From positions 153,078,001 to 153,142,000 of the forward strand of contig CM126203.1 in assembly GCA_052327205.1 (NCBI GenBank): a stretch of DNA of 64,000 bases. Direction: 5' to 3'. The stretch's first letter is position 1. Every line of letters begins with the position of its first letter. The notes under the pieces are model-generated. The model was not told the DNA's origin and did no database searches. It saw nothing but the letters and a program-made list of their open reading frames with translations. Positions 1,221 through 41,428 of the stretch are shown here, in pieces. The DNA comes from Somniosus microcephalus (taxonomy: Eukaryota). The translations under genes and the position numbers were made by a program.

Positions 1221-1407
1221 TGTAGTGTATGTACCTTTAAGAGAGAACTACTTTTACAGCTCCTGTATACTGTAGTACCGGCAGTGACCACACCCGTATA
1301 TAAGCCTTGAGCATGCCTCTGTACCCCCAGTCTTGAGACTACCCTACTCCAGTAAATACTTGTTGATTGTTAAGTTACAGCATCCGTGTGGTTATTGAAA
1401 AACATCA
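1221..1407 (+). mobile_element. Gypsy 3' LTR (~187 bp) preceded by a polypurine tract
   Basis: AAAAGGGGAGGAA PPT at ~1207-1219, then TGTAG...ACATCA. Internal TATATAA and an AGTAAA polyA-like motif. Right end inferred from the CA terminus only. Confidence 0.8.
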
Positions 1408-1432
1408 TACTCTCAGAATCACGGATCTAACA

Positions 1433-2710
1433 AGATTGAAGGGGGAGAGAGGAGTGGAGATTGAAGGGGGAGAGAGGAGAGGAGATTGAAGGGGGGAGAG
1501 AGGAGAGAGCGGATCGAAGGGGAGAGAAGAGAGGAGATTGAAGGGGAGAGAGGAGAGGAGATTGAAGGGGAGAGAGGTGCGAGGATCGAAGGGGGAGAGA
1601 GGAGAGGAGATCGAAGGGGAGAGAGGAGTGGAGATTGAAGGGGGAGAGAGGAGAGGAGATTGAAGGGGGAGAGTAGAGGAGATTGAAGGGGGAAGAGGAG
1701 AGGAGATTGAAGGGGAGAGAGGAGAGGAGATTGAAGGGGAGAGAGGAGAGGAGACTGAAGGGGAGAGAGGAGAGGAGATTGAAGGGGAGAGAGGAGAGGA
1801 GATTGAAGGAGAGAAAGGAGAGGAGATTGAAGGGGGAGAGAGGAGATTGAAGGGGAGAGAGGAGCGAGGATCGAAGGGGGAGAGAGGAGAGGAGATTGAA
1901 GGGGGAGAGGAGAGGAGATTGAAGGGGGAGAGGAGGAGATTGAAGGGGGAGAGAGGAGATTGAAGGGGAGAGAGGAGAGGAGATTGAAGGGGAGAGAGGA
2001 GAGGAGATTGAAGGAGAGAGAGGAGAGATTGAAGGAGGGAGAGGAGATTGACGGGGAGAGAGGAGAGGAGATTGAAGGGGAGAGAGGGGAGGAGATTGAA
2101 GGGGGAGGGGAGAGGAGATTGAAGGGGAGAGAGGAGAGGGGATTGAAGGGGAGAGAGGAGAGGAGATTGAAGGGGAGAGAGGAGAGGAGGTTGAAGGGGG
2201 AGAGAGGAGATTGAAGGGGAGAGAGGAGCGAGGATCGAAGGGGGAGAGAGGAGAGGAGATTGAAGGGGGAGAGGAGAGGAGATTGAAGGGGGAGAGGAGA
2301 GGAGATTGAAGGGGAGAGAGGAGATTGAAGGGGGAGAGAGGAGAGGAGATTGAAGGGGGAGAGAGGAGAGGAGATTGAAGGGGGAGAGGACAGGAGATTG
2401 AAGGGGAGAGAGGAGAGGCGATTGAAGGGGAGAGAGGAGAGGAGATTGAAGGGGGAGAGAGGAGATTGAAGGGGGGGAGAGAGGAGATTGAAGGGGGGAG
2501 AGGAGAGAGAGGAGATTGAAGGGGAGAGAGGAGATTGAAGGGGGAGAGGAGAGGAGATTGAAGGGGGGAGAGGAGAGAGAGGAGATTGAAGGGAGAGAGG
2601 AGAGGAGATTGAAGGGGGAGAGAGGAGATTGAAGGGGGAGAGAGGAGATTGAAGGGGGAGAGAGGAGATTGAAGGGGGAAAGAGGAGAGAGAGGATCGAA
2701 GGGGGGGGAG
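1433..2710. repeat. Purine-rich minisatellite, unit ~20-26 bp (GAGGAGATTGAAGGGGGAGA[GGAGA])
   Basis: Directly visible tandem array, almost entirely A/G on the + strand. Confidence 0.97.
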
Positions 2711-2910
2711 GAGAGGAATTCGGGGGGAGAAAGTCAGGAACTTGTTGGGGGGGAGCATGGTATGAACAGTGGGGAGGGGGGAAGAACGTGATCCAGGTCT
2801 AAAGGAGGGAGGAATGAGAGCAAGAATGTGGTCCAGGTGGGAAGATAGATTGCCTTCTGTTAGGCCTGGATCACGTTCTTCCACCCCCACCCCATTTACA
2901 CCTGCACCAT
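2711..2910 (-). repeat. Copy of an unnamed foldback element (homologous to ~26280-26480, inverted)
   Basis: 22-bp inverted repeat GAAGAACGTGATCCAGGTCTAA / TTAGGCCTGGATCACGTTCTTC. Flanks align to the reverse complement of 26280-26480. Confidence 0.75.
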
Positions 2911-2939
2911 GTTCTCCCTCTCCTCCCCGCCCCCCAGGC

Positions 2940-3008
2940 CGCAGCGGTTCAAGAAGGCAGCTCACGACCACCCTCTCAAGGGCAACTGGGGATAGGCAAT
3001 AAATAAAT
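2940..3008 (+). mobile_element. Short 3' end of a CR1/L2-superfamily LINE (same family as 34140-34827)
   Basis: GCAGCGGTTCAAGAAGGCAGCTCAC...GGCAATAAAT matches ~34715-34777. Confidence 0.8.
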
Positions 3009-3235: not shown

Positions 3236-5102
3236 GGTCTACCAAAAACATTCCCTGCTCCATTCTAACTGCCCCCCGCCTGAATTACATTAGGTGGGTG
3301 GCGGGGGGTGGAGGCAGTGGTTAGAGTTCCCCTCACTGAGGCTCGTGTCAGTGTGCTTGGTTATCTTAGCATTTAAAGGAAATCAATCACTAGGTGATGC
3401 ACTGTAGTAATCATACTTTGTGGAACAAGTAAAATTGTTCCACAAAAGCATATTATGCATAATTGTTTTACATGTAAAACATTATGGGCCCGAAAATCCA
3501 TGGCCCTTCCAACGTTGTCCCACCATAAATCCAGCAGAATGCAGTGGAAGGGCTGGGATACATGAGCCCCAGCTTTTCCCACCAGTTCCTGAAGGGTCTT
3601 GTTTAGGGTGGAACCTACATCAGGGGAGAGTGGCTAGGGGACTAGGGGAGGGGACTCCCAGGCCAGGAATGCCCTCATCCCCAGCCAGGTGTACAGCTGC
3701 AGGCTGGTTCACTGAGTGAGTGGAGGTGTACTGGGCTGGTGCAGGTGATGGCCAGCCGCCTGTGCCCCAGAAGATTGTAAACATTTTTGCAGAATTTTTC
3801 CTCTATAAATGGGATGTTTTTCGGATGCCCGTCAGCACCTGTCCCAAAGTAGGCAATCTTTTCCAGAATTAGTAGCCTTCCCTGACTAGCGGGCATCTGA
3901 GCTATGCCCCACGAGAAACGTGTGCAACAGAGGGAAGCACACTTGCCTTTACCTTAGTCCTAATATCAGAACATTTCTTCATTTGCAATCAGGTACAAGT
4001 GAACTGGGTGTCTGGATGGACTTAGTTTACGACCTCCCTCCATCCAGCTGGCATCTGTGCCTTTACTGGAGGGTAGTCTTCAGCACCAAACAGGGCTACC
4101 CTCCTTTGTGGCACCTCCTGCAGCAGGACCTCCAATTCTTTGGTATCAAGGAAGCAGTGTTACCCATACCTCTCCGCTGCTCCATTTTGAATAATTCGTT
4201 TATTCCCCCCTCCCCTCCCCCAACTTGCCCTTTTATGGCAAGCTGACAGGACTTTAAAAGCTGCCTAACTGGAATTTATGGTCCCCAGACAAGTGTGCTA
4301 CAGGCCAAGCTTAGCCTATTCAAAGTAGTGGGCAGGTCTTATGTCCCAAAATTCAGCGCATCCCACCCCTATGCTACGGGTCCAAGTGTGCCCGCTGCAA
4401 TCTCAATTTTGCCAGTTCAGGGCAATAAAGTATCTGTTCCAGTACTGCTGAGACCATCCTTAAGAATGTATTTTCGTTTGGTGACTGGTCTTGATGGTGA
4501 AACTAGGATAGCTGCAGATTCTGATTCCTTCTCACCCTCCAGTGACAACAAGGGTTGGATTATTCAGTCCATGAACTGAGATAATGATTTGATTGGAGTA
4601 CACAGCAAGCCTCAGTGCGCTGACTGAGAACTCAGTGATGATGGAGATGCGGAAATGAGAAATACCTACATCATAATAAAATGCATCATATTCTCCATAG
4701 TCTCCCAGTGTCATATACCAACACAACAGGAATGATGAGTCTCCTTGCCATTTTGTTCTTCGGGAGGTATATTATTACCATTCACTCTTGTACTCAGAAA
4801 TGTGTTGGAAGATTACCAAGACACAAAACCCATTTTGAAGAAAGAATTACTTTAGGTCTTTTTCCCTCTGAGGACTAAAGGAGTAAAAACTAGGGGAAAA
4901 AAAGGTGCTATTAGTCTGACAGGATATTTCTTCCTATCTCCATCACCTATGTAAAAACTGGGATTTTAAATGTCAAAAATGATTGTATCATCTTAGAGAT
5001 GAGTTTTTGAGACATATAATGAGAACAATTTCAGTCATTATCTAACAGGACAAGCATTCACTGATCTTTTCCTTTCCTTTTCAATTTTCTTTTAGAATTC
5101 TG

Positions 5103-5799
5103 GGCCTAGAAATTGGGTTCTGGTCTTGCCAGGGCTGTAGCGCCAGAAAGTTTGCGCCAGCGGTAATGTGGCAGCGCGCGACGAAAATTCGGGTGCGCCG
5201 GGCCCAGACGGCGGCGGGCGCTAAAACCCTCCTTTAGCGCCTCAAAACGGGCGTGAACTTGGGTTTCCCGGCGCTAATCCCCCGCTGCGGCACCTGATGC
5301 GGTGCGGCAGGCGGGGGAACTGCAGGCCTCCTCCTCCTGTTAAGGAGGAGCTGCCTGCAGCCGACAACTGTCCGGCGGATTGACCCGACATCTGACCCCG
5401 GCACCTCGGGGAAGTGCCGGGCTCGCATCAGACACTGATCAGGGCCGCGGGGGGGGAATGCAGGAGTCCGGGAAGGGAGGTGCGGGCAGGCGGCCGCCGG
5501 GAACGCGGCCGGCCGCCGCTCCACCTTTATGCGCCGGCGCACACTGGGGGAAGACTCTGTTGCCAGAGTCTTAGTTGCGCCTGCCACGGGCGAGGCGGGC
5601 GCAACTGAATTTCGGCTTGGGGCCGGGTTACCACGGCAACCGGGACGCTGCGCACACCGATGACGTCATCGGTGCCGGCGCAGCGCTACCGGTGCAACGC
5701 CGATTTAGGGCCCCAGGGAATTTCTCAACTGGCCATAACTCCGGCGCTAGGCCCTCTAGCGCCTCAAATGCGGCGCTAAGCCTACCGAATTTCTAGGCC
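5103..5799. mobile_element. PIF/Harbinger-type MITE, CpG-rich
   Basis: Perfect TIR GGCCTAGAAATT / AATTTCTAGGCC. 3-bp TSD CTG (5100-5102, 5800-5802). Many AGCGCC/GGCGCT motifs. Confidence 0.9.
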
Positions 5800-5952
5800 C
5801 TGATTTCTCATGCTGCTCCTCTTGGAAGTATCAGAAGATAACACGAAACTCTCAGTTAGCATTTCCCTCCCCCCCACCCCCTCCCAACAAGGATACTAAG
5901 TAATATTTTCTACATGTATGTGCTCTGTTTTCATTTGATTAATAGTATGTTT

Positions 5953-6554
5953 CATAGAAACATAGAAAAATAGGAGCAGGAGTAGGCCATTCGGCCCTTC
6001 GAGCCTGATCATGGCTGATCCTCTATCTCAATACCATATTCCCGCTCTCTCCCCATACCCCTGTTCCTGTTGCCTTTTGTGTCTAGAAATCTATCTATCT
6101 CCTTCTTAAATATATTCAGTGACTTGGCCTCCACAGCCTTCTGTGGTAGAGAATTCCACAGGTTCACCACCCTCTGAGTGAAAACATTTCTCCTCATCTC
6201 CGTCCTAAATGTCCTACCCCGTATCCCGAGACTGTGACCCCTCGATCTAGATCCCCCAGCCAGGTGAAACATCCTCCCTGCATCCAGTCTGTCTAGCCCT
6301 GTCAGAATTTTATACGTTTCAATGAGATCCCCTCTCATTCTTCTAAACTCTAGTGAATACAGGCCTAGTCGACCCAATCTCTCCTCATACGACAGTCCTG
6401 CCATCTCAGGAATCAGTCTGGTGAACATTCACTGCACTCCATCTATGGCAAGTATATCCTTTCTTAGATAAGGAGACTAAAACTGCACACAGTACTCCAG
6501 GCGTGGTCTCACCAAGGCCCTGTATAACTGTAGTAGGCCCTGTATAACTGTAGT
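5953..6554 (-). mobile_element. 5'-truncated CR1 LINE (3' end)
   Basis: ORF 6009-6428 FTRLIP...YEERLGRLGLYSLEFRRMRGDLIETYKI; (TTTCTATG)n tail at 5953. Confidence 0.95.
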
Positions 6555-17572: not shown

Positions 17573-19550
17573 GTGAAGTCACAAGTACTCATGCACATCC
17601 TGAAAAATTGCGAGAAGTATGAATCACCTTCATACCTACCATGCCCTCCTAGTGTAAGTGAAGAAAGGGATAAATATTCACAAAGCACCACATGCTGTCC
17701 CTCCCCCAACAACCACAATGCCTTTCCATCGTTCCATCATTCCACTCTGCCTCAACCCAGTGCATAAGACCAAGGATGGTAGTGTTAAACTGAAAAGAGA
17801 AGTGATTGATGCGTAGCCTGCATTTGAAAGCATTCTCAACATGGAATATTTGCAGGCACCTGGGTGAAATTAAATATTGTGTTGACCAAGTGCTGATCTG
17901 TGTTCTTCTTGTGAAGGAAAGGTTTGCCCACAATTAGTAACAAAGAAGTGTCACAGACGAGGGAGGCGGGGTGGGGGGGGAGTTGGTGGCGGGGAGTGAG
18001 GAGATCAACAACTAAGACCACTTAATGCGCGCAAAGAACAAGCTCCTAATTCTACGGCAAACACAGTGGTGAGGCGGCGAGAGATGGGAGTATGGAGGAG
18101 ACCTGCCAGAAACAGGTTAGTAATGGAAGAGATCATCTACAGACATTCACCTCATTTGTAATGACTCCTAACATTGCTTAGTTACTTCTCCTAAATCACA
18201 TGTGGGAGTCTACCCTCCTAAAAATATTCCTTTTGTAACCTGCCTCGGTACTGCACATACAGGTGATCTATTCTCAGAGGCAGTCTGGCACATCCAAAGT
18301 GACCACTCCAATGTCTGAGTCACTAACTCCAACATGGCAGGTTACTTTCTCAAGCACCTGTCCAGATACATGCACTCAGATATAATTAAAGAGACAGTGA
18401 CATGGTGACACACCAAGCACCAGTGAGCGGAAGGAGTGGGAGGGAAAGAGGTGATGCCGGCTGTGCCTCCCTAGAGGTTAGAGACATACCTGCTCTTGGC
18501 TGAGGAACCAAGGGAACCTCCTTTCTCAAGTTGCAGGCAGATTGGTATCTTATAGCACCTCTTCTCCTGCCTGTGTAACTTCTTCATGATCCTGGGGATG
18601 GAGGACTCCACCATATTTGTCCGAGCACCTCAAATGAGACTTCAGTTTTCCAATAATCTGCTCTATCACAAGTCTTGTTGTTCCTCATTATATCTGTTGT
18701 GACCCCCTGATTGCAAATGACTTACAAGAGTCATCAGCCATGAATGCATCAAATATCCCTGATCACCAATCAATCATCCCAATGTATTGGGTTGAGTCAT
18801 CAAAGCTGATATAGTGAAGAATAAAAATCATGACAGCTATCAGTGTAGCGGGCATAGACTTGCAAGATCAGGTGATTTGTATCACACATTAGGTGGACAT
18901 TCATCGATTGAAAGCCCCTCCTATTAATAAAATTCAGGGGTGCTGTCATTGGGGGGCCTTCAAGGCCATATGCATGCCATCAATTGTGTCTCCCAAAACA
19001 AGTGTTCTACTCGGAGCTCCGACACGGCAAGAGAGCCCCAGGTGGGCAGAGGAAATGCTTCAAGGACACCCTCAAAGCCTCCTTGAAAAAGTGCAACATC
19101 CCCACCGAAACCTGGGAATCCCTGGCCCAAGACTGCACAAAGTGGAGGAGAAGCATCCGGGAAGGCACCGAACACCTCGGGCAGGATTTTCATTGGGCTG
19201 TGGAGGCGGGATTGGAGGCGTGTGGGGGTTAATCTCGCGAAATCGGGTGGCACGAACCCATCCCGCCCCCAACCCGCCTCCATGCCAGTTTCAAAGGAGG
19301 CGGATACCCGACCTGTGCTGGGAGCCGCCTCCCCGAGGCGTGAAGGGGATTAGGTAGTTAACGGGCAGTTTATAGCCTAATCACTATTTTTATGCCTGAA
19401 GTGTGGGATTCCCGATGGCTCCAAACCACGCCAAGTTAGTGAGGCGGACCGTCGGGCTGAAGGGCTTGGAGGGTTCAAGATGTCCGGTGTTCAGGTGAGT
19501 GATGGGTGCATGAGTTCAGAGGTAAGTGTGTTTGTTGTGTCTAAAGTGTT

Positions 19551-19670
19551 TAAAGAAGTTTTACTTACCTTTACTTCCCTTAAAGAAGTTTTACTTACCT
19601 TTACTTCCCTTAAAGAAGTTTTACTTACCTTTACTTCCCTTAAAGAAGTTTTACTTACCTTTACTTCCCT
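19551..19670. repeat. Perfect 30-bp tandem repeat x4
   Basis: TAAAGAAGTTTTACTTACCTTTACTTCCCT repeated four times. Confidence 0.97.
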
Positions 19671-20153
19671 TTACAGCCTTCCTTCCTTCAGGTCTCAGAG
19701 CGGCGGCAGCGGCGAGGACCAGGTAGGCCTCAGAGCGACGGCAGCGGCGGACCTGCAGGAGACGAGGCAGCCAAGCGGTGGTGATTTAAAGCAGTGGCGA
19801 GGACCAGGTAGGCCTCAGAGCGGCGGCAGCGGCGGACCTGTGGGAGACGAGGCGGCCGAGCGGCAGTGATTTAAAGCAGCGGCGAGGACCAGGTAGGCTT
19901 ACTAATCTCCGAGCTCAGAGGGAGGGAGAGAAGTAAAAAGTAATCGAAGTGTGATGTCACCAGAAAGCAGGTAAATGATTGGTTGGTGAGTATTTCTCTC
20001 TTTTTAAACTTTAACTCTGTGGTTTATAGTTTTTAAGGTCTCTGTGGTGTAGCGGGGACTGTTAGTAAACCAGGGCCCTTAAATATATCATTTAACTGTA
20101 GTGTAATTGGTGGCATTGATTTGATTTAATTTAATTGCAATTAATTAAAGGGT

Positions 20154-20536: not shown

Positions 20537-21487
20537 ATGGCAGGAGAGCCCGGTCCCATGGTATGCTCCTCCTGCGCTATGTGGGAACTCAGGGACACTT
20601 CCTGTGTCCCTGACAACCATGTGTGCAGGAAGTGTGTCCAGCTGCAGCTACTGGCAGACTGCATTGCGGTGCTGGAGCTGCGATTGGATACGTACTGGAC
20701 CATTTGCGATGCTGAGGACGTCATGGATATCACGTTTAAGCAGTTGGTCACACCGCAGGCAAAGGTTGGACAGGCAGAAAGGGAAGGGGTGACCAACAGA
20801 CAGAGTAGTAGGCGCAGGCAGTTAGTGCAGGAGTCCCCTGTGGACATCCCCCTCTCAAACAGATATACCACATTGAATACTGTTGAGGGGGATGGCTTAT
20901 CAGAGGAAGGCAGCAGCAGCCAACTTTCTGGCACCAGGGGTGGCTCTGCTGCACAGGACGGGAGGAAAAAGAGGGGTAGAGCTATAGTAATAGGGGGTTC
21001 TATTGTAAGGGGAATAGATAGGCGTTTCTGTGGCCGCAAACGAGACTCCAGGATGGTGTGTTGCCTCCCTGGTGCAAGGGTCAAGGATGTCTCAGAGTGG
21101 CTGCAGAACATTTTGGAAGGGGAGGGTGAACAGCCAGTTGTCGTGGTGCATATAGGTACCAACGATATAGGTAAAAAACAGGATGAGGTCCTAAAAGCTG
21201 AATATAGGATGTTAGGAGGTAAATTAAAAAATAGGACCTCAAAGGTGGTAATCTCAGGATTGCTACCAGTGCCACGTGCTAGTCAGAGTAGAAATAGAAG
21301 GATATTTCAGATGAATAAGTGGCTACAGGAATGGTGCAAGGGGGAGGGATTCAAATTCCTGGGACATTGGAACCGGTTCTGGGGGAGATGGGACCAGTAC
21401 AAACCGGACGGTTTGCACCTGGGCAGGGCCGGGACCGATGTCCGAGGGGGAGTGTTTGCTATTGCTTTGGGGGAGGGTTTAAACTAA
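20537..21487 (+). CDS. CR1 ORF1p (zinc finger/zipper + SGNH esterase)
   Basis: CSSC...HVCRKC, GGS (GDS variant), GTND, DGLH. Confidence 0.92.
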   Translation: MAGEPGPMVCSSCAMWELRDTSCVPDNHVCRKCVQLQLLADCIAVLELRLDTYWTICDAEDVMDITFKQLVTPQAKVGQAEREGVTNRQSSRRRQLVQESPVDIPLSNRYTTLNTVEGDGLSEEGSSSQLSGTRGGSAAQDGRKKRGRAIVIGGSIVRGIDRRFCGRKRDSRMVCCLPGARVKDVSEWLQNILEGEGEQPVVVVHIGTNDIGKKQDEVLKAEYRMLGGKLKNRTSKVVISGLLPVPRASQSRNRRIFQMNKWLQEWCKGEGFKFLGHWNRFWGRWDQYKPDGLHLGRAGTDVRGGVFAIALGEGLN

Positions 21488-24400
21488 AATGGCAGGGGGT
21501 TGGGAACCTGAGCAGGGAGACAGAGGAAAGGGAAACAAGGATAAAAGCAAAAGATAGGAAGGAGAAAAAAAAAAGTGGCAGTCAGAGAAATCAACGGTTT
21601 AAATCAAACATGGTCACAGTAAATAATAATTCTAATAGGTCTAAGAGCGTTAAAAAAACAAGCCTGAAGGCTTTGTGTCTTAATGCGAGGAGCATTCATA
21701 ATAAGGTGGATGAATTAGCTGCGCAAATAGAGGTAAACAAATATGATTTGTTTGGGATTACGGAAACATGGCTCCAGGGTGGCCAAATATTCAGGAAAGA
21801 TAGGCAAAAAGGAAAGGGAGGTGGGGTAGCATTGCTGGTTAAAGAAGGGATTAACACAATTGTAAGGAAGGATATTAACTCTGATGATGTGTAATCTGTA
21901 TGGGTAGAACTGAGAAATACCAAGGGGCAGAAAATGTTAGTGGGAGTGGTATATAGACCTCCAAACAGTAATGTGGAGGTTGGGGATGGCATTAAAAGGG
22001 AAATTAGAGAAGCGTGCAATAAGGGCACAGCAGTCATCATGGGTGACTTTAATCTACATATAGATTGGGCTAACCAAATTAGTAACAATACTGTGGAGGA
22101 GGAATTCCTGGAGTGTTTATGAGATGGTTTCCTGGACCAATATGTCGAGGAACCAACTAGAGATCAGGCCATCTTAGACTGGGTATCATGTAATGAGAAA
22201 GGATTAATTGGCAATCTTGTTGTACGAGGCCCCTTGGGTCGGAGCAATCATAATATGATAGAATTCTTCATTAAGATGGAGAATGAAGTAGTTGACTCAG
22301 AGACTAGGGTCCTGAATTTAAATAAAGGAAACTACGATGGTCTGAGGCGCGAGTTGGGTAGGATTGATTGGGGATGGTCACTCAAAGGGTTGACGGTGGA
22401 AAGGCAATGGCAAACATTCAAAGGCTGCATGGATGAACTACAGAGTTTGTTCATCCCTGTTTGGCATAAAAATAAAACAAAAAAGGTGACTCAACCGTGG
22501 CTAACAAGGCAAATTAGGGATAGCATAAGATCCAAGGAGAGGACATATAAATTGGCCAGAAAAAGCAGTAAACCTGAGGATTGGGAGCAGTTTAGGATTC
22601 AACAAAGGAGGACAAAGGGATTAATTAAGAAGGGGAAAATAGAATATGAGAGTAAGCTTGCAGGGAACATAAAAACTGACTGTAAAAGCTTTTATAGATA
22701 TGTGAAGAGAAAAAGATTGGTGAAGTCAAGCGTAGGTCCCTTGCAGTCAGAATCAGGGGAATTTATAATGGGAAACAAAGAAATGGCTGACCAATTAAAT
22801 ACATATTTTGGTTCTGTCTTCACAAAGGAGGACACAAATAACCTCCCAGAGATGTCGGGGAACATAGGGTCTGGCGAAAGGGAGGAACTGAAAGAAATCA
22901 GTATTTGTAGGGAAATGGTGTTAGGGAAATTGACGGGATTGAAGGCCGATAAATCCCCAGGGCCTGATAATCTACATCCTAGGGTACTTAAGGAAGTGGC
23001 CCTAGAAATAGTAGATGCATTGCTGATCATCTTCCAACATTCGATGGAATCTGGAACAGTACCCATGGATTGGAGGGTAGCTAATGTTATCCCACTATTC
23101 AAAAAAGGTGGTAGAGAGAAAATGGGGAATTACTGACCGGTAAGCCTGACATCAGTCGTGGGGAAAATGCTAGAGTCCATTATAAAAGATGTAATAGCAG
23201 AGCACTTGGAAAACAGTGACAGGATTGGACAAAGTCAACATGGATTTACAAAAGGTAAATCGTGCTTGACTAATCTACTGGAATTTTTTGAGGATGTATC
23301 TGGTAAAATAGATAAGGAAGAACCAGTGGATGTGGTGTATTTGGAATTTCAGAAGGCTTTCGATAAGGTCCCGCATAAGAGATTAGCGTGTAAAGTTAAG
23401 GCACATGGGCTTGGGGGCAAGGTATTGACTTGGATAGAGAACTGGTTGGCGGACAGAAAGCATTTATGATCTAGACAAGGGAACTAGATGTATTATCTCC
23501 AAGTTTGCAGACGACACAAAGCTGGGTGGGCGTGTGTGCTGTGAGGAGGATGCCGAGAAACTCCAGGATGATTTGGACAGGTTGGGTGATTGGTCAGAAG
23601 CATGGCAGATGCAATATAACGTGGATAAATGTTAGGTTATCCACTTTGGTGGCAAAAACAGGAAGGCAGATTATTATCTGAATGGCAATAGATTGGGAGA
23701 AGGGAAAGTGCAACGAGGCCTGGGTGTCCTTGTGCACCAGTCACTGAAGGTAAGCATGCAGGTGCAGCAGGCAGTTAAGAAGGCAAATGGTATGTTGGCC
23801 TTCGTAGCGAGAGGGTTTGAGTACAGGAACAAGGATGTCTTGCTGCAGTTGTACAGGGCCTTGGTGAGACCACATCTTGAGTATTGTGTGCAGTTTTGGT
23901 CGCCTTATCTGAGGAAGGATGTTCTTGCCATGGAAGGAGTTCAGCGAAGATTCATCAGGCTGATACCTGGGATGGCAGGAATGACGTATGAAGAGAGATT
24001 GGGTTGATTGGGCTTATACTCGCTGGAGTTTAGAAGAATGAGAGGGGATCTCATTGAAACTTATAAAATTCTGACAGGACTGGACAGACTAGATGCAGGA
24101 AGGATGTTCCCGATGGTCGGGGAGTCGAGAAACAGGGGTCACAGTCTAAGGATAAGGGGTAAGCCATTTAGGACAGAAATGAGGAGGAATTTCTTCACCC
24201 AGAGAGTGATGAACCTGTGGAATTCTCTGCCACAGAAGGCAGTAGAGGCCAATTCATTAAATATATTCAAGAAGGAGTTGGATTTACTTCTTAAGGCTAA
24301 AGGGATCAAGGGGTATGGGGAGAAAGCAGGGACAGGGTACTGAATTTGGATGATCAGCCATGATCGCATTGAATGGCGGAGCAGGCTCGAGGGGCCGAAT

Positions 24401-25419
24401 GGCCTACTCCTGCTCCTATCTTCTATGTTTCTATGTTTCTATGAGTCCCTCATCTCACCGGCACAGAAAGCAGAATGGCCGCGAGTTGTCAAAAGTTGCA
24501 GCATTCAGCTTTCTGTTCTGGAGAAATCTCTAAATCAGCCTGAGAGGAAGGAATTAACTTACTGTACAGATTGTCAGTGTTTGACAGCTTCAAAGAGCTG
24601 TCCAACACTGATATTTCATCTGTCAAAAGCTCTTGACAGATGAAATGTCAATCTGTGAAGTCACCTGTTGCCGGGTGGCCCTTAATTGGCCTGCTGAGCC
24701 TGCTGGGCGGGCTTAACAAGGTCAATCAAGTGAAAATCGCGTGGGTTGGCCACAACTCAATGGAGGCGGGACTACAACCCCAAAAGTTGTAGTCCCGTCT
24801 CCTACATGCCTCCAGTATCAAAATCCAGCCCCTCGAGTCTCTTCGCTGAGAGCAAACGGAAGCCAAGCGTAAGGAGCGCACGTCAACGCAAGCACCCCAC
24901 CCACCCGCCCCTTCAACCACTGTCTGCCCCACCTGTGACAGAGACTGTAGGTCCCGCATTGGACTCATCAGTCACCTCAGAACTCATTTTTAATGTGGAA
25001 GCAAGTCATCCTCGGTTCCGAGGGACTGCCTAAGAAGAAGAAGCTTCACGCCGTCAATTGTACTCTGCACCCATGGGAACCCAGCTAGTCTGGGCTACAT
25101 TTATTTGCACCACAAGTGGGTTGGACCAGGTTTCTGATTGGTCCCCTTGGAGGACAAGACACACCCAACAGTTTGTCCAGAATGTGTAATTTGATCCTGC
25201 CTGCTGGAGAGTAATTGAAGGTCTCTGCAATGTGTAATTTGATCCAGTCATTGTCACAGGCAGGCTCCCCGAGCCAATCTGCTCCAGTGCAGCCATGATA
25301 GTGGCATCTACCTGTTAATGTGGAGGGTCACCTAGAAAAGGAAGACAACTCTCACATGGCCACATATGGCCTGCCCTATCGACCTCCTCCCAATCATCAG
25401 TTGAGTGATATAATATAAA

Positions 25420-25530
25420 TTGCTGGAAATGCTCAGCTAGTCAGGCAGCATCTGTGGAGAGAGAACGTGAAAAGTTAACTCTTTCTCTTTCCATAAATGC
25501 TGCCTGATTTGCTAAGTATTTTGTTTTTGA
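25420..25530. mobile_element. Short foldback remnant resembling the Penelope pLTR
   Basis: Inverted arms CAGGCAGCATCTGTGGAGAGAGA / TCTCTTTCCATAAATGCTGCCTG; similar to 47555-47600. Confidence 0.55.
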
Positions 25531-26049
25531 ATCAGCAGAATGATAGTAGGAATCAGCAATGGTGCCATCAGACAACACCTGCACTCCGCTGAGCTGTTCA
25601 CCAATGCTAAGTTCAGGTTGACGTGTGGGCCCCTTCAAAAATGTGACGCCATGAACGAGCGATGCAAGATCATGTGGGATGCTGTAGCCATTTCTCTGAG
25701 GCTGAATTTGACAAATTCACAGCATTGACTATTTTACATAATTTGAGCTGTAAGGTTGTTTGAGTGAGGCACATTTCATTCAACAGGTGAGGGTGCGTCA
25801 TTGCAAGTGACATCACTAGCAGAACCAGAGATTTTTAGCATGCGCTGAGAATGACATCATTGAGTGGCCTGGCTCATGCGCAGGATGACATCACAGATCA
25901 ACCAGATACCAGAGGTAACCACACTGTCGCTAATCACTCTGTCAAACTAAACACTCTGGGTGAGAGCTGCGGTGACTGATGGGACATTGTGTGCGGGTCA
26001 CTGATTGTTAACAGATTTATTGGGTAGGAAGTGAATAGTGACAGTGTCA

Positions 26050-29000
26050 TGACTTCCGGATTTCGTCCAATCCAATGATGTCACTTGCCACACATGCACT
26101 GGGCTTTCCGAGAAATCAACTCACTGCCATTCATGGTCAAGAGTGTGATCCAGGCCTAGGGGAGAGGAGAGGGAGAACTCAGGTGAGAAAAGGTCAGGAG
26201 TTCTCCTTCTCCTCCCCCCTAGACCTGGATCACACTCTTGACTATGAACAGCAGTGAGTTGATTTCTGGGCAAGCCCGGCCCATACTGCAGGTATAAAGG
26301 GGGTGGGGTTGGATGAATGTGATCCAGGTCTAACAGAGGCGGGAGAACTTGATCCGTCTTCCCATCTGGATCATGTTCTGGCCCTGATTCCCCCAACCTT
26401 TAGACCTGGATCACCTTCTTCCCCCATCCCCCCGTTCTCTCCGTGCTCCTCCCAATGAGTTCCTGACCTTCTCCCCCCGGCCACCCGAGCTCCTGACCTT
26501 CTGTCCCCATCCCCGAGCTCCTGACCTTCTCTCCCCCTGCCCCAGCTCCTGACCTTCTCTCCCCCCCACCCCGAGCTCCTGAACTTCTCCTCACCCCCAC
26601 CCCGAGCTCCTGACCTTCTCTCCCCCCGCCCCAGCTCCTGACCTTCTCTCCCCCCCACCCGAGCTCCTGACCTTCTCCTCACCCCCGCCCCGAGCTCCTG
26701 ACCTTCTCCTCACCCCCACCCTGAGCTCCTGACCTTCTCCTAACACCCCACCCCGAGCTCCTGACATTCTCCTCACCCCCACCCCGAGCTCCGGTCCTTC
26801 TCCTCACCCCCACCCCGAGCTCCTGACCTTCTCCTCACCCCCAGCCCAGCTCCTGACTTTCTCCTCACCCCCACCCCGAGCTCCTGACCTTCTTCTGACC
26901 CCCCACCCGAGCTCCTGACCTTCTCCTCACCCCCCACCCAGCTCCTGACCTTCTCATCACCCCCAGCCCAGCTCCTGACTTTCTCCTCACCCCCACCCCG
27001 AGCTCCTGACCTTCTTCTGACCTCCCACCCCGAGCTCCTGACCTTCTCATCACCCCCACCCCAGCTCCTGACCTTCTCCTCACCCCCACCCCGAGCTCCT
27101 GACCTTCTTCTGACCCCCCACCCCGAGCTCCTGAACTTCTCCTCACCCCCCACCCAGCTCCTGACCTTCTCCTCACCCCCACCCCGAGCTCCTGACCTTC
27201 TCCTCACCCCCCATCCCGAGCTCCTGACCTTCTCCTCACCCCCACCCCGAGCTCCTGACCTTCTCCTCACCCCCCACCCCGAGCTCCAGAACCCCCATCC
27301 CGAGCTCCTGACCTTCTCCTCACCCCCCACCCTGAGCTCCTGACCTCCTCACCCCCCACCCCGAGCTCCTGACCTTCTCCTCACCCCCAGCCCCAGCTCC
27401 TGACCTTCTCCTCACCCCCCACCCCGAGCTCCTGACCCCCCATCCCGAGCTCCTGACCTTCTCCTCACCCCCACCCCGAGCTCCTGACCTTCTCCTCACC
27501 CCCACCCCGAGCTCCTGACCTTCTCCTCACCCCCACCCCGAGCTCCTGACCTTCTCCTCACCCCCCACCCCGAGCTCCTGAACCCCCATCCCGAGCTCCT
27601 GACCTTCTCCTCCCCCCAACCCTGAGCTCCTGACCTTCTCCTCACCCCCACCCCGAGCTCCTCACCTTCTCCTGACCCCCCACCCCGAGCTCCTGACCTT
27701 CTCCTCACCCCCACCCCGAGCTCCTGACCTTCCCATCACCCCCACCCCCAGCTCCTGACCTTCTCCTCACCCCCCACCCCAAGCTCCTGACCCCCCATCC
27801 CGAGCTCCTGACCTTCTCCTCACCCCCACCCCGAGCTCCTGACCTTCTCCTGACCCCCCACCCCGAGCTCCTGACATTCTCCTCACCCCCACCCCGAGCT
27901 CCTGACCTTCTCCTCACCCCCACCCCGAGCTCCTGACCTTCTCCTCACCCCCACCCCGAGCTCCTGACATTCTCCTCACCCCCACCCCGAGCTCCTGACC
28001 TTCTCCTCACCCCCACCCCGAGCTCCTGACATTCTCCTCACCCCCACCCCGAGCTCCTGACCTTCTCCTCACCCCCCACCCCGAGCTCCTGATCTTCTCC
28101 TCACCCCCACCCCAGCTCCTGACCTTCTCCTCACCCCCACCCCGAGCTCCTGACCTTCTCCTGACCCCCCACCCCGAGCTCCTGACCCCCCACCCCGAGC
28201 TCCTGACCCCCCACCCCGAGCTCCTGACCTTCTCCTCACCCCCACCCCGAGCTCCTGACCTTCTCCTCGCCCCCCACCCCAGCTCCTGACCTTCTCCTCA
28301 CCCCCACCCCGAGCTCCTGACCCCCCACCCCGAGCTCCTGACCTTCTCCTCACCCCCACCCCGAGCTCCTGACCTTCTCCTCACCCCCCACCCCAGCTCC
28401 TGACCTTCTCCTCACCCCCACCCCGAGCTCCTCACCCCCCACCCCGAGCTCCTGACCTTCTCCTCACCCCCACCCCAGCTCCTGACCTTCTCCTCACCCC
28501 CACCCCGAGCTCCTGACCTTTTCCTCACTCCCACCCCGAGCTCCTGACCTGCTCCTCACCCCCCACCCCGTGCTCTTGACCTTCTCCTCACCCCCCACCC
28601 TGAGCTCCTGACCCCCCACCCCGAGCTCCTGACCTTCTCCTCACCCCCCACCCCAGCTCCTGACCTTCTCCTCACCCCCACCCGAGCTCCTGACCTTCTC
28701 CTCACCCCCCACCCCGAGCTCCTGACCTTCTCCTGACCCCCCACCCCGAGCTCCTGACCTTCTCCTCACCCCCACCCGAGCTCCTGACCTTCTCCTCACC
28801 CCCCACCCCGAGCTCCTGACCTTCTCCTCACCCCCCACCCCGAGCTCCTGACCTTCTCCTCACCCCCCACCCCGAACTCCTGATCTTCTCCCCCCCACCC
28901 TGAGCTCCTGACCTACTCTCCCCCCACCCCGAGCTCCTGACCTTCTCTCCCCCCACCCCGAACTCCTGACCTTCTCTCCCCCCACACCCTCTGATCCCCT

Positions 29001-29177
29001 GTCCTCGCCCCACTCCGATCACCTGACCTTCTCCTGGCAAAAGACACCTGGCATGCGCGGCTCCGGTGCCTGGGCAGGACGGTGTTTCGGCTCGGCCCAG
29101 AGGGCTCGGCTCTGCCCCATACAGGTGCACATGCACAGAACAACTCAAACTTGTTCGTGCAAAGTCACTCCGGCTAG
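26050..29177 (+). mobile_element. Unnamed foldback element with internal minisatellite and Helitron-like 3' end; 5' boundary unresolved
   Basis: Hairpin TGCACAGAACAA/TTGTTCGTGCA (29132-29161), 12-nt spacer, then CTAG|T (29174-29178). Large palindromes at 26101-26277 and 26315-26418. Partial homolog at 2711-2910. Confidence 0.55.
26460..29030. repeat. C-rich minisatellite, unit ~31-33 bp (CCCCACCCCGAGCTCCTGACCTTCTCCTCAC)
   Basis: Directly visible ~2.5-kb array with shorter ~20-bp variant units. Confidence 0.97.
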
Positions 29178-30062
29178 TCTGTAGAATTGGGTTGCGCTCT
29201 CTCCTTTTATTTTGCAGGTTTCATGGAGAAATTAATACAGTGAGACGCCTGCCTGAAGAGAGTGACATAGATTTTACAGAGAACACCTGTGGCTGCCTGG
29301 AATGAATCAAGCACTGAAAAATATCAATGTAGTGGTCACTTTCTCAGCCACAGATAACGCTACACTCTGCATGGGCTGCAACTCTTCTGCCAGCATCGGG
29401 CATAATTCCCTGGAAACATCCAAAGGAAGTACAGCCTTCTGATGCATTGATGGGCTGTGAAATCTAGCTGAGAGTGGTGAGGTCTGTAAACCCTGTGGGG
29501 AGGGTATCTACAGGTTGGAAGCAACCATATTTGGTGAAAGCTATTCCCCCCACCAAAAGTTCAAATTTTCAATCACGTTGCAGAACTAACAGTCCAAAGA
29601 TCACTGTCCTGATGAAGCCTGATAGAGCTATAATAACTTCAGCAAATCTGGCTCCAGCTAGCAGTACCATCTCTGGGATGACACTCTCTGATACTGGCCA
29701 TTATGTACTGACGAGTTAATGGTGGGTGGGTTAGAAATGGAAACAAACACAAATTAAACATGCCCACCCACCTTCATTTATATGCAGCTGGGTGGACGGT
29801 GTCATCAGCTGGATTCGAAAGAAAAATTATTTTTGGCAGTTAGCAAAATGTGCAAGTTCTAAAAGACATTCAGTGATGTGTACCTGTGACAAAACACTTG
29901 CTTTGGGTGTTTTTTTATTGCAGTTCGCTGCTGTTGTGACGAGTTTACTTCACTAGTATTCCAACAGCATACCAAACTACCCTATTTGCCTTCAGTTAAT
30001 GTCATCAACCCTAAAAAAAACTACCTGAAAATGGGCTGGTTTCACAAGGAAAATCCATGCGT

Positions 30063-33000
30063 ATAGAAACATAGAAACATAGAAGATGGAGCAGGAGTAG
30101 GCCATTCGGCCCTTCGAGCCTGCTCCGCCATTCAATGAGATCATGGCTGATCATCCAAATTCAGTACCCTGTCCCTGCCTTCTCCCCATATCCCTTGATC
30201 CCTTTAGCCTCAAGAAATATATCCAACTCTTTCTTGAATATATTTAATGAACTGGCCTCCACCGCCCTCTGTGGCAGAGAATTCCACAGGTTCACCACTC
30301 TCTGGGTGAAGAAATTCCTCCTCATTTCAGTCCTAAATGGCTTACCCCTTATCCTTAGACTATGACCCCTGGTTCTGGACTCCCCGGCCATTAGAAACAT
30401 CCTTTCTGCATCTAGTCTGTCCAGACCTGACAGAATTTTATAGGTTTCGATGAGATCCCCTCTCAATCTTCTAAACTCCAGTGAGTATAAGCCCAATTGA
30501 CACAATCTCTCCTCCTACGTCATTCCTGCCATCCCAGGTATCAGCCTGGTGAATCTTCGCTGCACTCCCTCCTTCCGAAGAACGTCCTTCCTCAGGTAAG
30601 GTGACCAAAACTGCACACAATACTCAAGGTGCGGTCTCACCAAGGCCCTGTACAACTGCAGCAAGACATCCTTGTTCTTGTACTCGAACCCTCTTGCTAC
30701 GAAGGCCAACATACCATTTGCCTTCTTAACCGCCTGCTGCACCTGCATGCTTACCTTCAGCGACTGGTGCACAAGAACACCCAGGTCTCTTTGCACTTCC
30801 CCTTCTCCCAATCTATTGCCATTCAAATAATAATCTGCCTTCCTGTTTTTGCCACCAAATTGGATAACCTCACATTTATCCACGTTATAGTGCATTTGCC
30901 ATGTTTCTGCCCAATCACCCAACCTGTCCAAATCGTACTGGAGTTTCATGACATCCTCCTCGCAGCATACCTTCCCACCCAGCTTTGTGTCATCTGCAAA
31001 TTTGGAGATATTATATCCAATTCCCTCGTCCAGATCATTAATATATATTGTGAACAGCTGGGGTCCTAGGACCGATCCTTGCGGTACCACACTAGTCACT
31101 GCCTGCCACTCGGAAAACGACCCGTTTATTCCAACTCTTTGCTTTCTGTCCGCCAACCAGTTCTCTATCCAAGTCAATACCTTGCCCCCAATCCCATGTG
31201 CCTTAATTTTGCACGCTAACCTCTTATGCGGGACCTTATCGAAAGCCTTCTGAAAGTCCAAATACACCACATCCACTGGTTCTCCCTTATCTATTTTACC
31301 AGTTACATCCTCAAAAAATTCCAGTAGATTAGTCAAGCATGATTTACCTTTTGTAAATCCATGTTGACTTTGTCCGATCCTGTCACTGCTTTCCAAGTGC
31401 TCTGCTATTACATCTTTTATAATGGACTCTAGCATTTTCCCCACTACCGATGTCAGGCTTACCGGTCTATAATTCCCTGCTTTCTCTCTGCCACCTTTTT
31501 TGAATAGTGGGGTAACATTAGCTACCCTCCAATCCATGGGTACTGTTCCAGAGTCTATCGAGTTCTGGAAGATGACCAGCAATGCATCTACTATTTCCAG
31601 GGCCACTTCCTTAAGTACCCTGGGATGTAGATTATCAGGCCCTGGGGATTTATCGGCCTTCAGTCCCATCAATTTTCCTAACACCATTTCCCTACAAATA
31701 CTGATTTCTTTCAGTTCCACCCTTTCATCAGATCCTATGTTCCGCAGTATTTCTGGGAGGTTATTTGTGTCCTCCTTTGTGAAGACAGAACCAAAATATG
31801 TATTTAGTTGGTCTGCCATTTCTTTGCTCCCCATTATAAATTCCCCCGATTCTGACTGCAAGGGACCTACGCTTGACTTCACCAATCTTTTTCTCTTTAC
31901 ATATCTATAAAAGCTTTTACAGTCAGTTTTTATGTTCCCTGAAAGCTTACTCTCATATTCTATTTTCCCTTTCTTAATTAATTCCTTTGTCCTCCTTTGT
32001 TGAATCCTAAACTGCTCCCAATCCTCAGGATTATTGCTTTTTCTGGCCAATTTGTATGTGCTCTCCTTGGATCTTATGCTATCCCTAATTTCCCTTGTTA
32101 GCCACGGTTGAGTCACCTTTTTTGTTTTATTTTTATGCCAAACTGGGATGAACAACTTCTGTAGTTCATCCATTCGGTCTTTGAATGTTTGCCATTGCCT
32201 ATCCACCATCAACCCTTTGAGTGCCATTCCCCAATCAATCCTACCCAACTCGCTCCTCAGACCATCGTAGTTTCCTTTATTTAAATTGAGGACCCTAGTT
32301 TCTGAGTCAACTATTTCATTCTCCATCTTAATGAAGAATTCGATCATATTATGATCGCTCCGACCCAAGGGGCCTCGTACAACAAGATTGCTAATTAATC
32401 CTTTCTCGTTACATAATACCCAGTCTAAGATGGCCTGATCTCTGGTTGGTTCCTCGACATATTGGTCCAGGAAACCATCCCGTAAACACTCCAGGAATTA
32501 CTCCTCCACAGTATTGTTACTAATTTGGTTAGCCCAATCTATATGTAGGTTAAAGTCACCCATGATGACTGCTGTGCCCTTATTGCACGCTTCTTTAATT
32601 TCCCTTTTAATGCTATCCCCAACCTCCGCCTTACTGTTTGGAGGTCTATATACCACTCCCACTAATGTTTTTTTCCCCTTAGTATTTCTCAATTCTACCC
32701 ATACAGATTCCACCTCATCAGAGTTAATATCCTTCATTACAATTGTGTTAATCCCTTCTTTAACCAGTAATGCTACCCCTCCTCCCTTTCCTTTTTGCCT
32801 ATCTTTCCTGAATATTGAATACCCCTGGATGTTGAGTTCCCAGTCTTGGCCGTCCTTGAGCCACGTTTCCGTAATCCCAACCAAATCATATTCGTTTACC
32901 TCTATTTGCGCAGCCAATTCATCCACCTTATTACAAATGCTCCTCGCATTAAGACACAAAGCCTTCAGGCTTGCTTACTTAACGCTCTTAGCCCTATTAG

Positions 33001-33449
33001 AATTATTATTTACTGTGGCCACGTTTGATTTAAACTGTTGATTTCTCTGACTGCCACTTTTGTTTTTCTTCTTCCTATCTTTTGCTTTTATCCTTGTTTC
33101 CCTTTCCTCTGTCTCCCTGCTCAGGTTCCCAACCCCCTTCCATTTTAGTTTAAACCCTCCCCCAGAGCAGTAGCAAACACTCCCCCTAGGACATCGGTTC
33201 CAGCCCTGCCCAGGTGCAGACCGTCCGGTTTGAACTGATCCCACCTCCCCCAGAACCAGTTCCAATGCCCCAGGAACTTGAATCCCTCCCCCTGGCACCA
33301 TTCCTCTAGCCACGTATTCATCTGAAGTATCCTTCTATTTCTACTCTGACTAGCACGTGGCACTGGTAGCAATCCTGAGATTACTACCTTTGAGGTCCTG
33401 TTTTTTAATTTACCTCCTAACTCCCTATATTCCGCTTTTGGGACCTCAT
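30063..33449 (-). mobile_element. 5'-truncated CR1 LINE (CR1-D), same subfamily as CR1-C
   Basis: ORF1 C-terminus 33145-33449; ORF2 pieces 32959-32498, 32368-30515, 30505-30161 (PQGSVLGP, FADD); (TTTCTATG)n tail. Confidence 0.95.
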
Positions 33450-34139: not shown

Positions 34140-34827
34140 GCCCCTCACCATCAACATCCTGGGGGTCACCATTGACCAGAAACTGGACCAGCCACATAAA
34201 TACTGTGGCAACAAGAGCAGGTCAGAGGTTGGGTATTCTGCGGCGAGTGTCTCACCTCCTGACTCCCCAAAGCCTTTCTACCATCTACAAGGCACAAGTA
34301 ATGAGTGTGATGGAATACTCTCCACTTGCCTGGATGAGTGCAGCTGTAACAACACTCAAGAAGCTCGACACCATCCAGGACAAAGCAGCCCGCTTGGTTG
34401 GCACTCCATCTACCACCTTAAACATTCACTCCCTCCACCATCGGCGTACCGTGGCTGCAGTGTGTACCATCTACAAGATGCACTGCAGCAACTCGCCAAG
34501 ACTTCTTCGGCAGCAACTCCTAAACCCGCGCCCTCTACCACCTAGAAGGACAAGGGCAGCAGATGCATGGGAACACCATCACCTTCAAGTTCCCCTCCAA
34601 GTCACACACCATCCTGACTTAGAAGTATATCGCCGATCCTTCATCATCGCTGGGTCAAAATCCTGGAACTCCCTACCTAACAGCACTGTGGGAGTACCTT
34701 CACCACACAGACTGCAGCGGTTCAAGAAAGCGGCTCACCACCACCTTCTCAAGGGAAATTAGGGATGGGCAATAAATGCTGGCCTTGCCAGCGATGCCCA
34801 CATCCCATAAAATGAGTTAAAAAAAAT
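34140..34827 (+). mobile_element. 5'-truncated CR1/L2-superfamily LINE 3' end
   Basis: NILGVTIDQKL...WTSHINTVATRAGQRLGILRR...MEYSPLAW...IQDKAARL, then AATAAA and an A-rich tail. Confidence 0.88.
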
Positions 34828-35262: not shown

Positions 35263-36012
35263 GGGGGAAAATTCAGTTGGTAGTGCCACCCGTTAGCGCC
35301 TTAAGAGGGCGCTAAGTGGGGCGCAAACCAACTAGCGCCCGGGCGTGGCACTGCCCACGCCTCCCGCAAAATTCAGCAGGAGGTTAGTGGTGGCGCTAAC
35401 CGGTAGCACCCTGCAGCGCTGCGCCGCTGGCGATGGCGTCATTGGTGTGCGCAGCGCCCCGCTCACGCCCCGGCCGCAATCTTTGGGAGCGCCCCCTGAT
35501 TTACCGCCAGACGCTATGTCTGACAGGGTCAGGGGGGCATATCTGTGGCCGGGGAGGCGCAATTTAAAGGCGAGGTGCGGGGCGGCCATTTTTGTTGCTG
35601 GCAGCCTGCCAGCACCTGCCTGCGATCCCGTCCCCGGCCTCCTGAACACCGCCCCCCCCCCCGCTGCAGAGTGCCAGCTGCGCTCCAAGAGCCCGGCACT
35701 TCTCTTGAGTGCCGGGCTCTTTTGCCTGCATTCCCGATCCCCGGGGGCCCAGCTGGGCCCCAGGTCGCGCTGCACAAGGCCCCTCCCCTTTATGTAGGGG
35801 AGGAAGGCCTGCAATACTGCGGCACGTAGCGCCACGATATTCACTCGCAGCGCCCCAAGAGGGAGGCGGGGCGTTTCCAGTAGCGCCCCGCTTCCCTCTT
35901 GGGGCGCAACCACTGAATTTCCGGCGCAGGGGAGCTAATTTTTCCGGGACGCTACATTTAGCGCCCTGGCGAAGTTAGCGCCTCAATTGCGGCGCTACTC
36001 AATTTTTAGTCC
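35263..36012. mobile_element. CpG-rich Harbinger-type MITE
   Basis: Left end GGGGGAAAATTC is identical to the Harbinger terminus at 59932; right end AATTTTTAGTCC; ATA on both flanks; AGCGCC/GGCGCT motifs as in 5103-5799. Confidence 0.8.
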
Positions 36013-36555
36013 ATAGAATTTTCATACAACAACAACATGTATTTCTATAGCGCCTTTAACGTAGTAAAATGTCCCAAGGCGCTTCACAGGAGTGTTATAA
36101 GACAAAAATTTGACACCGAGCCACATAAGGAGAAATTCGGGCAGATATCCAAAAGCTTGGTCAAAGAGGTAGGTTTTAAAGAGCATCTTAAAGGAGGAAA
36201 AGAGAGCGAGAGAGGCGGTGAGGTTTAGGGAGGGAATTCCAGAGCTTTGGACCTTGGCAGCTGAAGGCACAGCCATTAATGTTTGAGCGATTATAATCAG
36301 GGATGCTCAAGAATTAGAGGAGCGCAGATATAAGAACATAAGAAATAGGAGCAGGAGTAGGCCAATCGGCCCCTCGAGCCTGCTCCGCCATTCAGTAAGA
36401 TCATGGCTGATCTGATCCTAACCGCCAATCCACTATCACAGAACCATCTCCTGAATCTAACAGAATTAGACACACGAAATAGGAGCAGGATCAGGCTACA
36501 CGGCCCCTGGGCCCGCTCCGCTACCCACAGGGCCATGACCGATCCGAACCTAGAC

Positions 36556-40502: not shown

Positions 40503-40725
40503 TCTATGTAATTAATTACATTTATTAATATTATTCTTAAATACCCTCTGCCTCGATTCTAGATGGTGAATATCACACCTTAGAAACTATAAACCAAAGA
40601 GATTTAAGCTTAAAAAGGGAGAAATACTCACCAACCAATCACTTACCCGCTTTCTGGTGACGTCACACTTGGATTACTTTTTACCTCTCTCCTTCCCTCC
40701 GAGTTCCCAGACCGGAGACTGGTAC

Positions 40726-41311
40726 GCCTTACCTGGGCTCTGGGGCTTTTATAGCCCCGCTCTGCCGCTCAGGATTCCCGCCGACGCTGCGAGGCCTTAC
40801 CTGGTCTCTGGGGACTTTTATACCCCGCTCTGCCGCTCAGGTTTCCCGCCGACGCTGTGAGGCCTTACCTGGTCTCTGGGACTTTTATACCCCGCTCTGC
40901 CGCTCAGGATTCCCGCCGACGCTGCGAGGCCTTACCTGGGTCTCTGGGACTTTTATAGCCCCGCTCTGCTGCTCAGGATTCCCGCCGACGCACTGAGGCC
41001 TTGCCTGGTCTCTGGGGCCTTTTATAGCCCCGCTCTGCCGCTCAGGATTCCCGCCGACGCTGTGAGGCCTTACCTGGGTCTCTGGGACTTTTATAGCCCC
41101 GCTCTGCCGCTCAGGATTCCCGCCGATGCTGTGAGGCCTTGCCTGGTCTCTGGGGCCTTTTATAGCCCCGCTCTGCCGCTCAGGATTCCCGCCGACGCTG
41201 TGAGGCCTTACCTGGGTCTCTGGGACTTTTATAGCCCCGCTCTGCCGCTCAGGATTCCCGCCGATGCTGTGAGGCCTTACTTGGGTCTCTGGGACTTTTA
41301 TAGCCCCGCTC
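40726..41311 (-). promoter_or_regulatory. CR1-E 5' UTR tandem monomers (~68-69 bp x ~8.5)
   Basis: Sense unit CAGCGTCGGCGGGAATCCTGAGCGGCAGAGCGGGGCTATAAAAGTCCCAGAGACCCAGGTAAGGCCTC contains TATAAAAG and CAG|GTAAG. Promoter function is inferred. Confidence 0.7.
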
Positions 41312-41428
41312 TGGGGTTGTGGGGCTGGAGGAGATTACAGATAGGGAGGGGCGAGGCCATGGAGCAATTTGAAAACAAGACTGAGAATTTTGAAATCGAG
41401 GCATTGCTTAACCGGGAGCCAATGTAGG

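Follow-up and report, generated by a model that had tools for sequence, protein, structure and literature searches.

Two copies of what is probably a short, non-coding dispersed repeat of the shark genome, built from 24-40-nt purine-rich modules in both orientations, lie 23.5 kb apart and inverted relative to each other in a 64,000-nt stretch of Somniosus microcephalus DNA (the window), and each copy adjoins a kilobase minisatellite. Our explanation is that each copy amplified a different one of two adjacent modules already present in the element, module X in copy A and module Y in copy B; taken as a whole, we give this explanation about an even chance of being right. Because the modules occur in both orientations, the anatomy is foldback-like: on the element strand the order would be X, Y, a core with hairpin H1, and then inverted Y-X. 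The two copies agree in the order of X, Y and the core on that strand.

Positions 2721-2906 (+) align with 26479-26287 (-) at 78.5% identity over 195 columns (E 1.2e-37, BLASTN self-comparison of the array-masked window), and the Smith-Waterman score of the core pair is 180 against a shuffle mean of 20, with none of 1000 shuffles scoring as high. The earlier note had described 2711-2910 as an inverted homolog of about 26280-26480, and the alignment bears this out, the coordinates being off by about 10 nt at most. No third core was found in the self-comparison, which leaves two cores in 64 kb. By self-alignment and folding, the core of copy A occupies 2743-2906 (+), and the core of copy B, together with its core-proximal Y unit, occupies 26287-26479 (-). 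Each contains hairpin H1, with arms at 2771-2809 and 2853-2891 in copy A (82% complementary) and at 26297-26344 and 26389-26436 in copy B (73% complementary). The arm complementarity and the folding z-scores of -5.0 (copy A) and -4.4 (copy B), neither of which was equalled in 200 shuffles, agree with the claim that a foldback is common to both copies. A spaced hairpin-arm motif occurs at three sites in the window (2788, 26145 and 26319), against a maximum of zero in 100 shuffles, the extra occurrence, at 26145, being accounted for by a second hairpin, H2, carried by copy B.

Parsed into units, copy A reads as 55 X, one Y and the core. Tandem-repeat detection places array A at 1433-2717 with a period of 24 and 55.0 copies, and unit parsing resolves 1433-2716 (+) into 55 units of module X, 19-28 nt long and exactly 24 nt in 21 of the 55. 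These units differ from the modal unit by 38 substitutions in 1260 positions (3.0%), and the array holds a block duplication at an offset of 364 nt, with an exact internal repeat of 109 nt. The single module Y, the unit amplified in array B, follows at 2717-2742 (+).

Copy A is interrupted on both sides by other elements. On the left, 1221-1432 (+) has TG...CA ends and directly follows a polypurine tract, and we take it to be the 3' LTR of a retrotransposon, presumably of Gypsy type; the ORF upstream of it (49-1134) contains rve and H2C2 integrase domains (Pfam). The whole of 49-1432 has the makeup of the end of a Gypsy-type element, with an integrase ORF open for 361 codons, a polypurine tract and a 212-nt LTR adjoining array A. 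Since this LTR cuts array A on the left, the 55 units may be only the portion of the array to the right of the LTR. At the other end, a stub at 2911-2939 (+) is homologous to the second H2 arm of copy B (about 26178-26153; 17/18 identity, 1 of 3000 shuffles), the 104 nt of copy B between core and stub being absent from copy A as an alignment gap. The right end of copy A is a fragment of another dispersed repeat at 2935-3004 (+), 86% identical to 34708-34777, and we presume from its appearance that this 70-nt fragment is a LINE 3' end.

In copy B the parsed order is a Y-type word, about 1.5 X, 84-86 Y and the core. Array B was detected at 26457-28985 with a period of 31 and 83.9 copies, and parses into about 84-86 units of module Y at 26463-28965 (-). 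The modal unit is 31 nt long, a 21-nt deletion variant recurs, and the units carry 65 substitutions from the modal unit in 2475 positions (2.6%); an exact internal repeat of 92 nt occurs at an offset of 418. Shorter units of 28-30 nt, similar to the lone Y of copy A, occur at both edges of the array; its interior consists of a derived, longer Y unit. Adjacent copies match at 84% in the arrays (periods 24 and 31). Beyond array B lie about 1.5 copies of module X at 28987-29022 (-), with the 24-nt period seen in array A, and then a Y-type word at 29023-29035 (-), which is the last recognisable part of copy B. The two kilobase arrays reported beside the element are thus present, at about 55 x 24 nt and 85 x 31 nt, both with the head-to-tail units of 10-100 nt that define a minisatellite, and they are purine-rich on the same element strand, as had been stated (purine fractions of 0.91 for array A and 0.77 for array B).

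The earlier note regarded these arrays as new, locus-specific minisatellites. Each locus does have its own unit, but the units appear to have existed beforehand, each being recognisable in the other copy outside the array, Y strongly and X moderately. For Y, sequence comparison makes the link between the copies firm: the Y of copy A (2721-2742) matches the core-proximal Y of copy B (26479-26458) at 21/22 positions, a figure reached by none of 3000 shuffles. This same match upholds the shared junction described earlier, although the 11-letter word quoted for it is exact in copy A only, its first letter being different in copy B.

For X, the link is probable. Positions 29022-28987 agree with consecutive modal A units at 25/36. 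Of the 125,234 positions scanned on the two window strands, array A excluded, this is the highest score, the runner-up having 22; when the local 75 nt were shuffled with dinucleotides preserved, 11 of 5000 shuffles did as well. The query length of 36 nt was picked after the alignment was seen. Across the 10 query lengths tried between 18 and 48, the same site is top or tied for top at 8, being beaten by six sites at length 18 and by one at length 27, and with a second unit as query it is the sole best at all 4 lengths. The GATC words of this X counterpart are 24 nt apart, which is the modal period of array A. The match is of low complexity, and it is weaker when taken ungapped at 24 nt (25 and 138 of 2000 shuffles as good) and when gapped against array A (71 and 112 of 2000). 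A comparison of the A junction with the distal end of copy B was equalled by 229 of 3000 shuffles, and one of X alone with an H2 arm by 414 and 452 of 3000. Elsewhere in the window, each array unit is found solely in the other copy, as a short relic; neither array A nor array B has a second copy there.

The chance that two random cores would both adjoin an array on the 5' side is about 2e-6, a post hoc figure, and the evidence supports the view that the arrays belong with the element and did not come to lie there by chance. The claim of an equivalent position is not right: both arrays lie on the same side of the core, but the junctions themselves are offset by one module (about 25 nt), because copy A keeps one Y between array and core. 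With two adjacent modules amplified, the proposal of one internal site of array birth is not supported. A form of that proposal in which unrelated new units arise repeatedly at one fixed junction would accommodate the differences in unit length and consensus as well as the common side of the core, but it does not accommodate the presence of each unit in the other copy or the offset of the junctions, and we find it hardly credible.

The similarity of the two modules raises another possibility, that one ancestral minisatellite drifted by concerted evolution into X and Y, which would make the arrays homologous along their whole length. The layout of head word, G run and purine tail is common to X and Y; a 33-nt unit at 28998 joins an X-like head to a Y tail; and two Y variants match the modal X at 17/24, equal to the distal X at that length. 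Against this, array A matches the interior of array B no better than shuffles do (621 of 1000 as good), its match to the proximal edge of array B is equalled by 184 of 1000 shuffles, and X and Y have been kept distinct, and in the same order, in both copies. We therefore consider descent of both arrays from a single one unlikely.

The amounts of divergence bear on when the arrays were formed. The cores differ at 28 of 183 positions (15.3%), compared with the 3.0% and 2.6% by which the array units differ from their modal units; the array figures roughly double when expressed pairwise, and even then the units within an array are closer to one another than the two cores are, which supports homogenisation of the arrays at a time after the copies had diverged. 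The 109-nt (offset 364, array A) and 92-nt (offset 418, array B) exact repeats point to multi-unit duplications. Having only two copies, however, we can fit the data both to amplification in place and to two subfamilies, each with its own X-type or Y-type array, that spread by transposition and so carried their arrays to multiple loci. The latter is a possibility that we take seriously, while rating it well short of even. A core difference of 15% is enough for separate subfamilies, and arrays carried in this way would resemble miDNA4 or the central repeats of Helentrons. The VNTR of SVA is likewise an internal array spread by transposition. The window also offers a parallel, in that two CR1 5' ends that are 89% alike carry different but related tandem units. 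Countering this are the lack of a second window copy of either array, with the units occurring elsewhere only as relics, and the suggestion, made for Tetris, that kilobase arrays may disable transposition (PMC4079207).

The CR1-type LINE 5' regions just mentioned lie at 19706-20039 (+) and 40577-41313 (-) and have 130 nt in common at 89% identity. Each is preceded by a different GC-rich unit, one of 85 nt repeated 2.3 times and the other of 69 nt repeated 8.6 times, and the two units are related (SW 34, 1 of 1000 shuffles). This is the same pattern of a shared core with different arrays, and the units are probably promoter monomers.

Hairpin H2 of copy B, located at 26094-26284 by an inverted-repeat search, has 87-nt arms and a 17-nt loop, and its arms are identical at 72/80 positions (90%), which makes them closer to each other than the two cores are. 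Within it, the X-Y junction recurs in inverted form at 26159-26199 (+), matching 2703-2739 with an SW score of 31 that 7 and 31 of 3000 shuffles attain; in a tile scan that excluded copy A and the interior of array B, this match was the best of 10,878 window tiles after the proximal Y itself. This inverted copy is only about 41 nt long and its terminal position in the element is uncertain. Fold-back may have created H2 in copy B once the two copies had separated, or copy A may have lost one arm and the loop.

Beside H2, at 25790-26100, decayed inverted repeats occur together with promoter-like words, and we include this stretch as an uncertain member of the element. It contains 4 of the 15 TGA(C/T)(A/G)TCA words in the window, plus GCATGCGC, CCAAT and CCGGAA words, and no second copy of this cluster was found in the window. 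Also nearby, the palindrome at 25427-25521, like those at 24609-24650 and 57444-57552, is isolated and unrelated to the X-Y-core element; 25420-25466 has a partial second copy at 47552-47597.

The promoter-like words, together with a TATA-like word near 26293 on the + strand, in front of H1, might mark the element as what remains of a retroelement promoter, either a LINE 5' UTR with a monomer array or an LTR, in which case the arrays would be promoter monomers. The arrays do lie on the 5' side of the purine-rich strand, as the CR1 5' arrays of the window do. Yet when the flanks were compared with the window by tblastx, copy B had no LINE or LTR body next to it, and copy A had nothing but short pieces of other repeats; no resemblance to the 69-nt CR1 monomer was seen (equalled by 999 and 864 of 1000 shuffles); and the TATA-like word points opposite to the LINE reading. 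We judge a promoter origin very unlikely.

Without its arrays, the element is about 240-400 nt long and non-coding, in keeping with the size and coding capacity of a MITE, and its nested hairpins and the inverted X-Y junction in H2 (about 41 nt) may be foldback-type features. Copy A is cut on both sides, and the search for termini covered copy B. Around copy B, 4 inverted 11-mers were found where 3.95 are expected, none of them with a target-site duplication, and the left and right flanks show no similarity to each other at E 0.5. A Harbinger-like terminus pattern with a GGG start has no match within 25400-29200. For a comparison with Helitron or Helentron end modules, only one side of the arrays is comparable between copies.

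Harbinger transposases are present in the window, with no feature linking them to the X-Y-core element. Three diverged PIF/Harbinger transposase remnants, 65-69% alike, lie at 53799-54875, 58112-58648 and 62357-62648; the best relatives of the first are in sharks, led by Pristiophorus japonicus at 74-75% identity, and the nearby ORFs at 52440-53413 and 60891-61874 may be the second gene of these elements. Two GC-rich palindromic elements (5102-5800 and 35264-36013) have inverted ends with a GGG start and a 47-nt internal stretch in common, and are presumably Harbinger-type MITEs.

The results on termini would also suit a sequence that was never mobile, namely a hairpin-rich and repeat-prone stretch that was long ago duplicated locally in inverted orientation. 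No termini or target-site duplication were found (for copy B), there are only two copies in the window, and no coding capacity was detected. On the other hand, the shared sequence is limited to about 240 nt plus the modules, although longer shared flanks could have been lost where other elements cut copy A, and most of the window's other multi-copy stretches are assigned to transposable elements. We also count against a local duplication that nested inverted repeats are a usual trait of non-autonomous DNA elements. We regard such an origin as distinctly unlikely, and place it with the promoter relic among the less likely readings of the data.

The surroundings are transposon-dense vertebrate DNA, with Pfam matches in 12 of the 29 long ORFs scanned; the domains include a LINE-type ORF1 esterase, endonuclease/RT, integrase, RT-RNase H, zinc knuckles and DDE_Tnp_4 transposases. 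Young CR1 copies at 36330-37880 and 48777-50302, in inverted orientation, are 97% identical over 1551 nt, and another pair (21183-24442 and 30063-33449) is 92-93% identical.

Searches beyond the window yielded no relatives of the element. Rfam gave 0 matches at the gathering threshold in the whole window. An RNA gene was considered and rejected, as 61 of the 62 sub-threshold Rfam matches in 25300-26600 are to miRNA hairpin models and reflect hairpin shape only; a + strand scan of the element found no hammerhead core word. In bacterial and archaeal genomes the spaced hairpin-arm pattern has 0 matches, a result without bearing on eukaryotes. The translated core (76 aa) gave 1 hit among 1.84 billion proteins, a repetitive SRCR-like protein from a newt (E 6e-5); we dismiss it as chance, its score coming from 9 repeats of a 10/17 match and the copy-B frame giving an E of 0.55. 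The translated core with part of array A found no protein at E 1e-6 among the 8000 candidates scored. Such searches of prokaryote genomes and of proteins would hardly pick up a non-coding shark repeat, and their outcome does not show that it is rare. A word search of the open-access literature found no description of such an element in sharks, repeat libraries not having been covered by sequence.

Returning to amplification of a different resident module in each copy, the element itself suggests how it could have begun. Short direct repeats bracket each module, with GGTCAGG around Y and GATC opening successive X units, and these could have allowed a first duplication by slippage or unequal exchange. 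This would fit the slippage start of the Haber-Louis model as it is described (PMC6947457, PMC3389668). Minisatellite turnover would then have lengthened each array at its own locus, leaving behind multi-unit block duplications and the older-looking edge units; the short edge units and derived interior of array B are what might be expected of expansion from the middle of the locus. Which module was amplified would be a matter of chance. A role for the hairpin in array birth is plausible but hypothetical: the neighbouring hairpin might promote the first slippage by stalling replication or repair. This step and the assignment of the element as a non-autonomous DNA transposon, possibly of foldback or MITE-like type, are the least certain parts of the explanation. 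Canonical G-quadruplex patterns (loops up to 7) number 0 in either array, with 1 and 9 found when loops up to 12 are allowed, and so no G4 drive is indicated.

Short, near-perfect tandem duplications also occur at 19550-19671 (30 nt x 4.1), 60654-60788 (54 nt x 2.5) and 6515-6554 (20 nt x 2.0), showing that early-stage tandem units are common in this region.

The value of the shark pair is that each copy keeps the other's unit unamplified, showing the form of the ancestral element, and the initiation of such arrays is still largely an open question. We can also imagine, though we think it doubtful, that an abundant and undescribed shark element of foldback type acts as a genome-wide minisatellite nursery whose copies each have a few hairpin-flanked, purine-rich modules and independently bring different ones to kilobase length. 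If so, thousands of loci would be replicate minisatellite births with a known ancestral state, and would allow a direct test of a nearby hairpin as the trigger of array birth. Simple tandem repeats are reported to be plentiful in some shark and ray genomes (bioRxiv 10.1101/2025.06.08.657570), and an abundant family with frequent, module-variable arrays might explain part of that load.

Minisatellites born from dispersed repeats are already well documented, in Alu, MaLR, Xstir, miDNA4 and Tetris, so the shark pair alone will not surprise a specialist. The units of the mouse minisatellites Ms6-hm and Hm-2 are reportedly very short. As described, these two likewise lie within copies of one dispersed repeat (MaLR LTRs, Kelly 1994), the parent being an LTR element in the mouse and an unclassified hairpin element in the shark. 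For human, 7,276 of 31,472 minisatellites (23%) are given as derived from transposable elements, with most clusters at a single locus and with positional hotspots in AluS and LTR12 (Ahmed and Liang 2012, PMC3389668). For human arrays that survey recognises the Haber-Louis model, in which an array starts from direct repeats of 5-20 nt on its flanks, and it assigns a mechanism to only 6% of the TE-derived ones; human arrays lacking flanking repeats are mostly of two units (PMC3389668), whereas the shark arrays have 55 and about 85.

The closest counterparts to the shark element are modular. In Xenopus, Xstir (of the Xmix MITE) and miDNA4 are reported to carry an internal motif that can be a single monomer or form arrays of differing length, and they resemble our element in being vertebrate inverted-repeat elements with that property (PMC12628747, PMC9659126). 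They are, however, established MITEs with one shared monomer (PMC12628747, PMC9659126), while here there are two adjacent modules and the arrays are at the level of the locus. In the account of Tetris and its TIR-220 in Drosophila virilis, internal tandem units were amplified to kilobase arrays of up to 66 copies, and the shark element shares with it a modular, inverted-repeat architecture and the amplification of units already inside the element (PMC4079207). Tetris has verified termini with 8-10 nt target-site duplications and TIR-220 units of about 220 nt (PMC4079207); no termini or target-site duplications were found around copy B, the units of the shark element are of 24-31 nt, and in the shark it is two modules that have been amplified in two copies.
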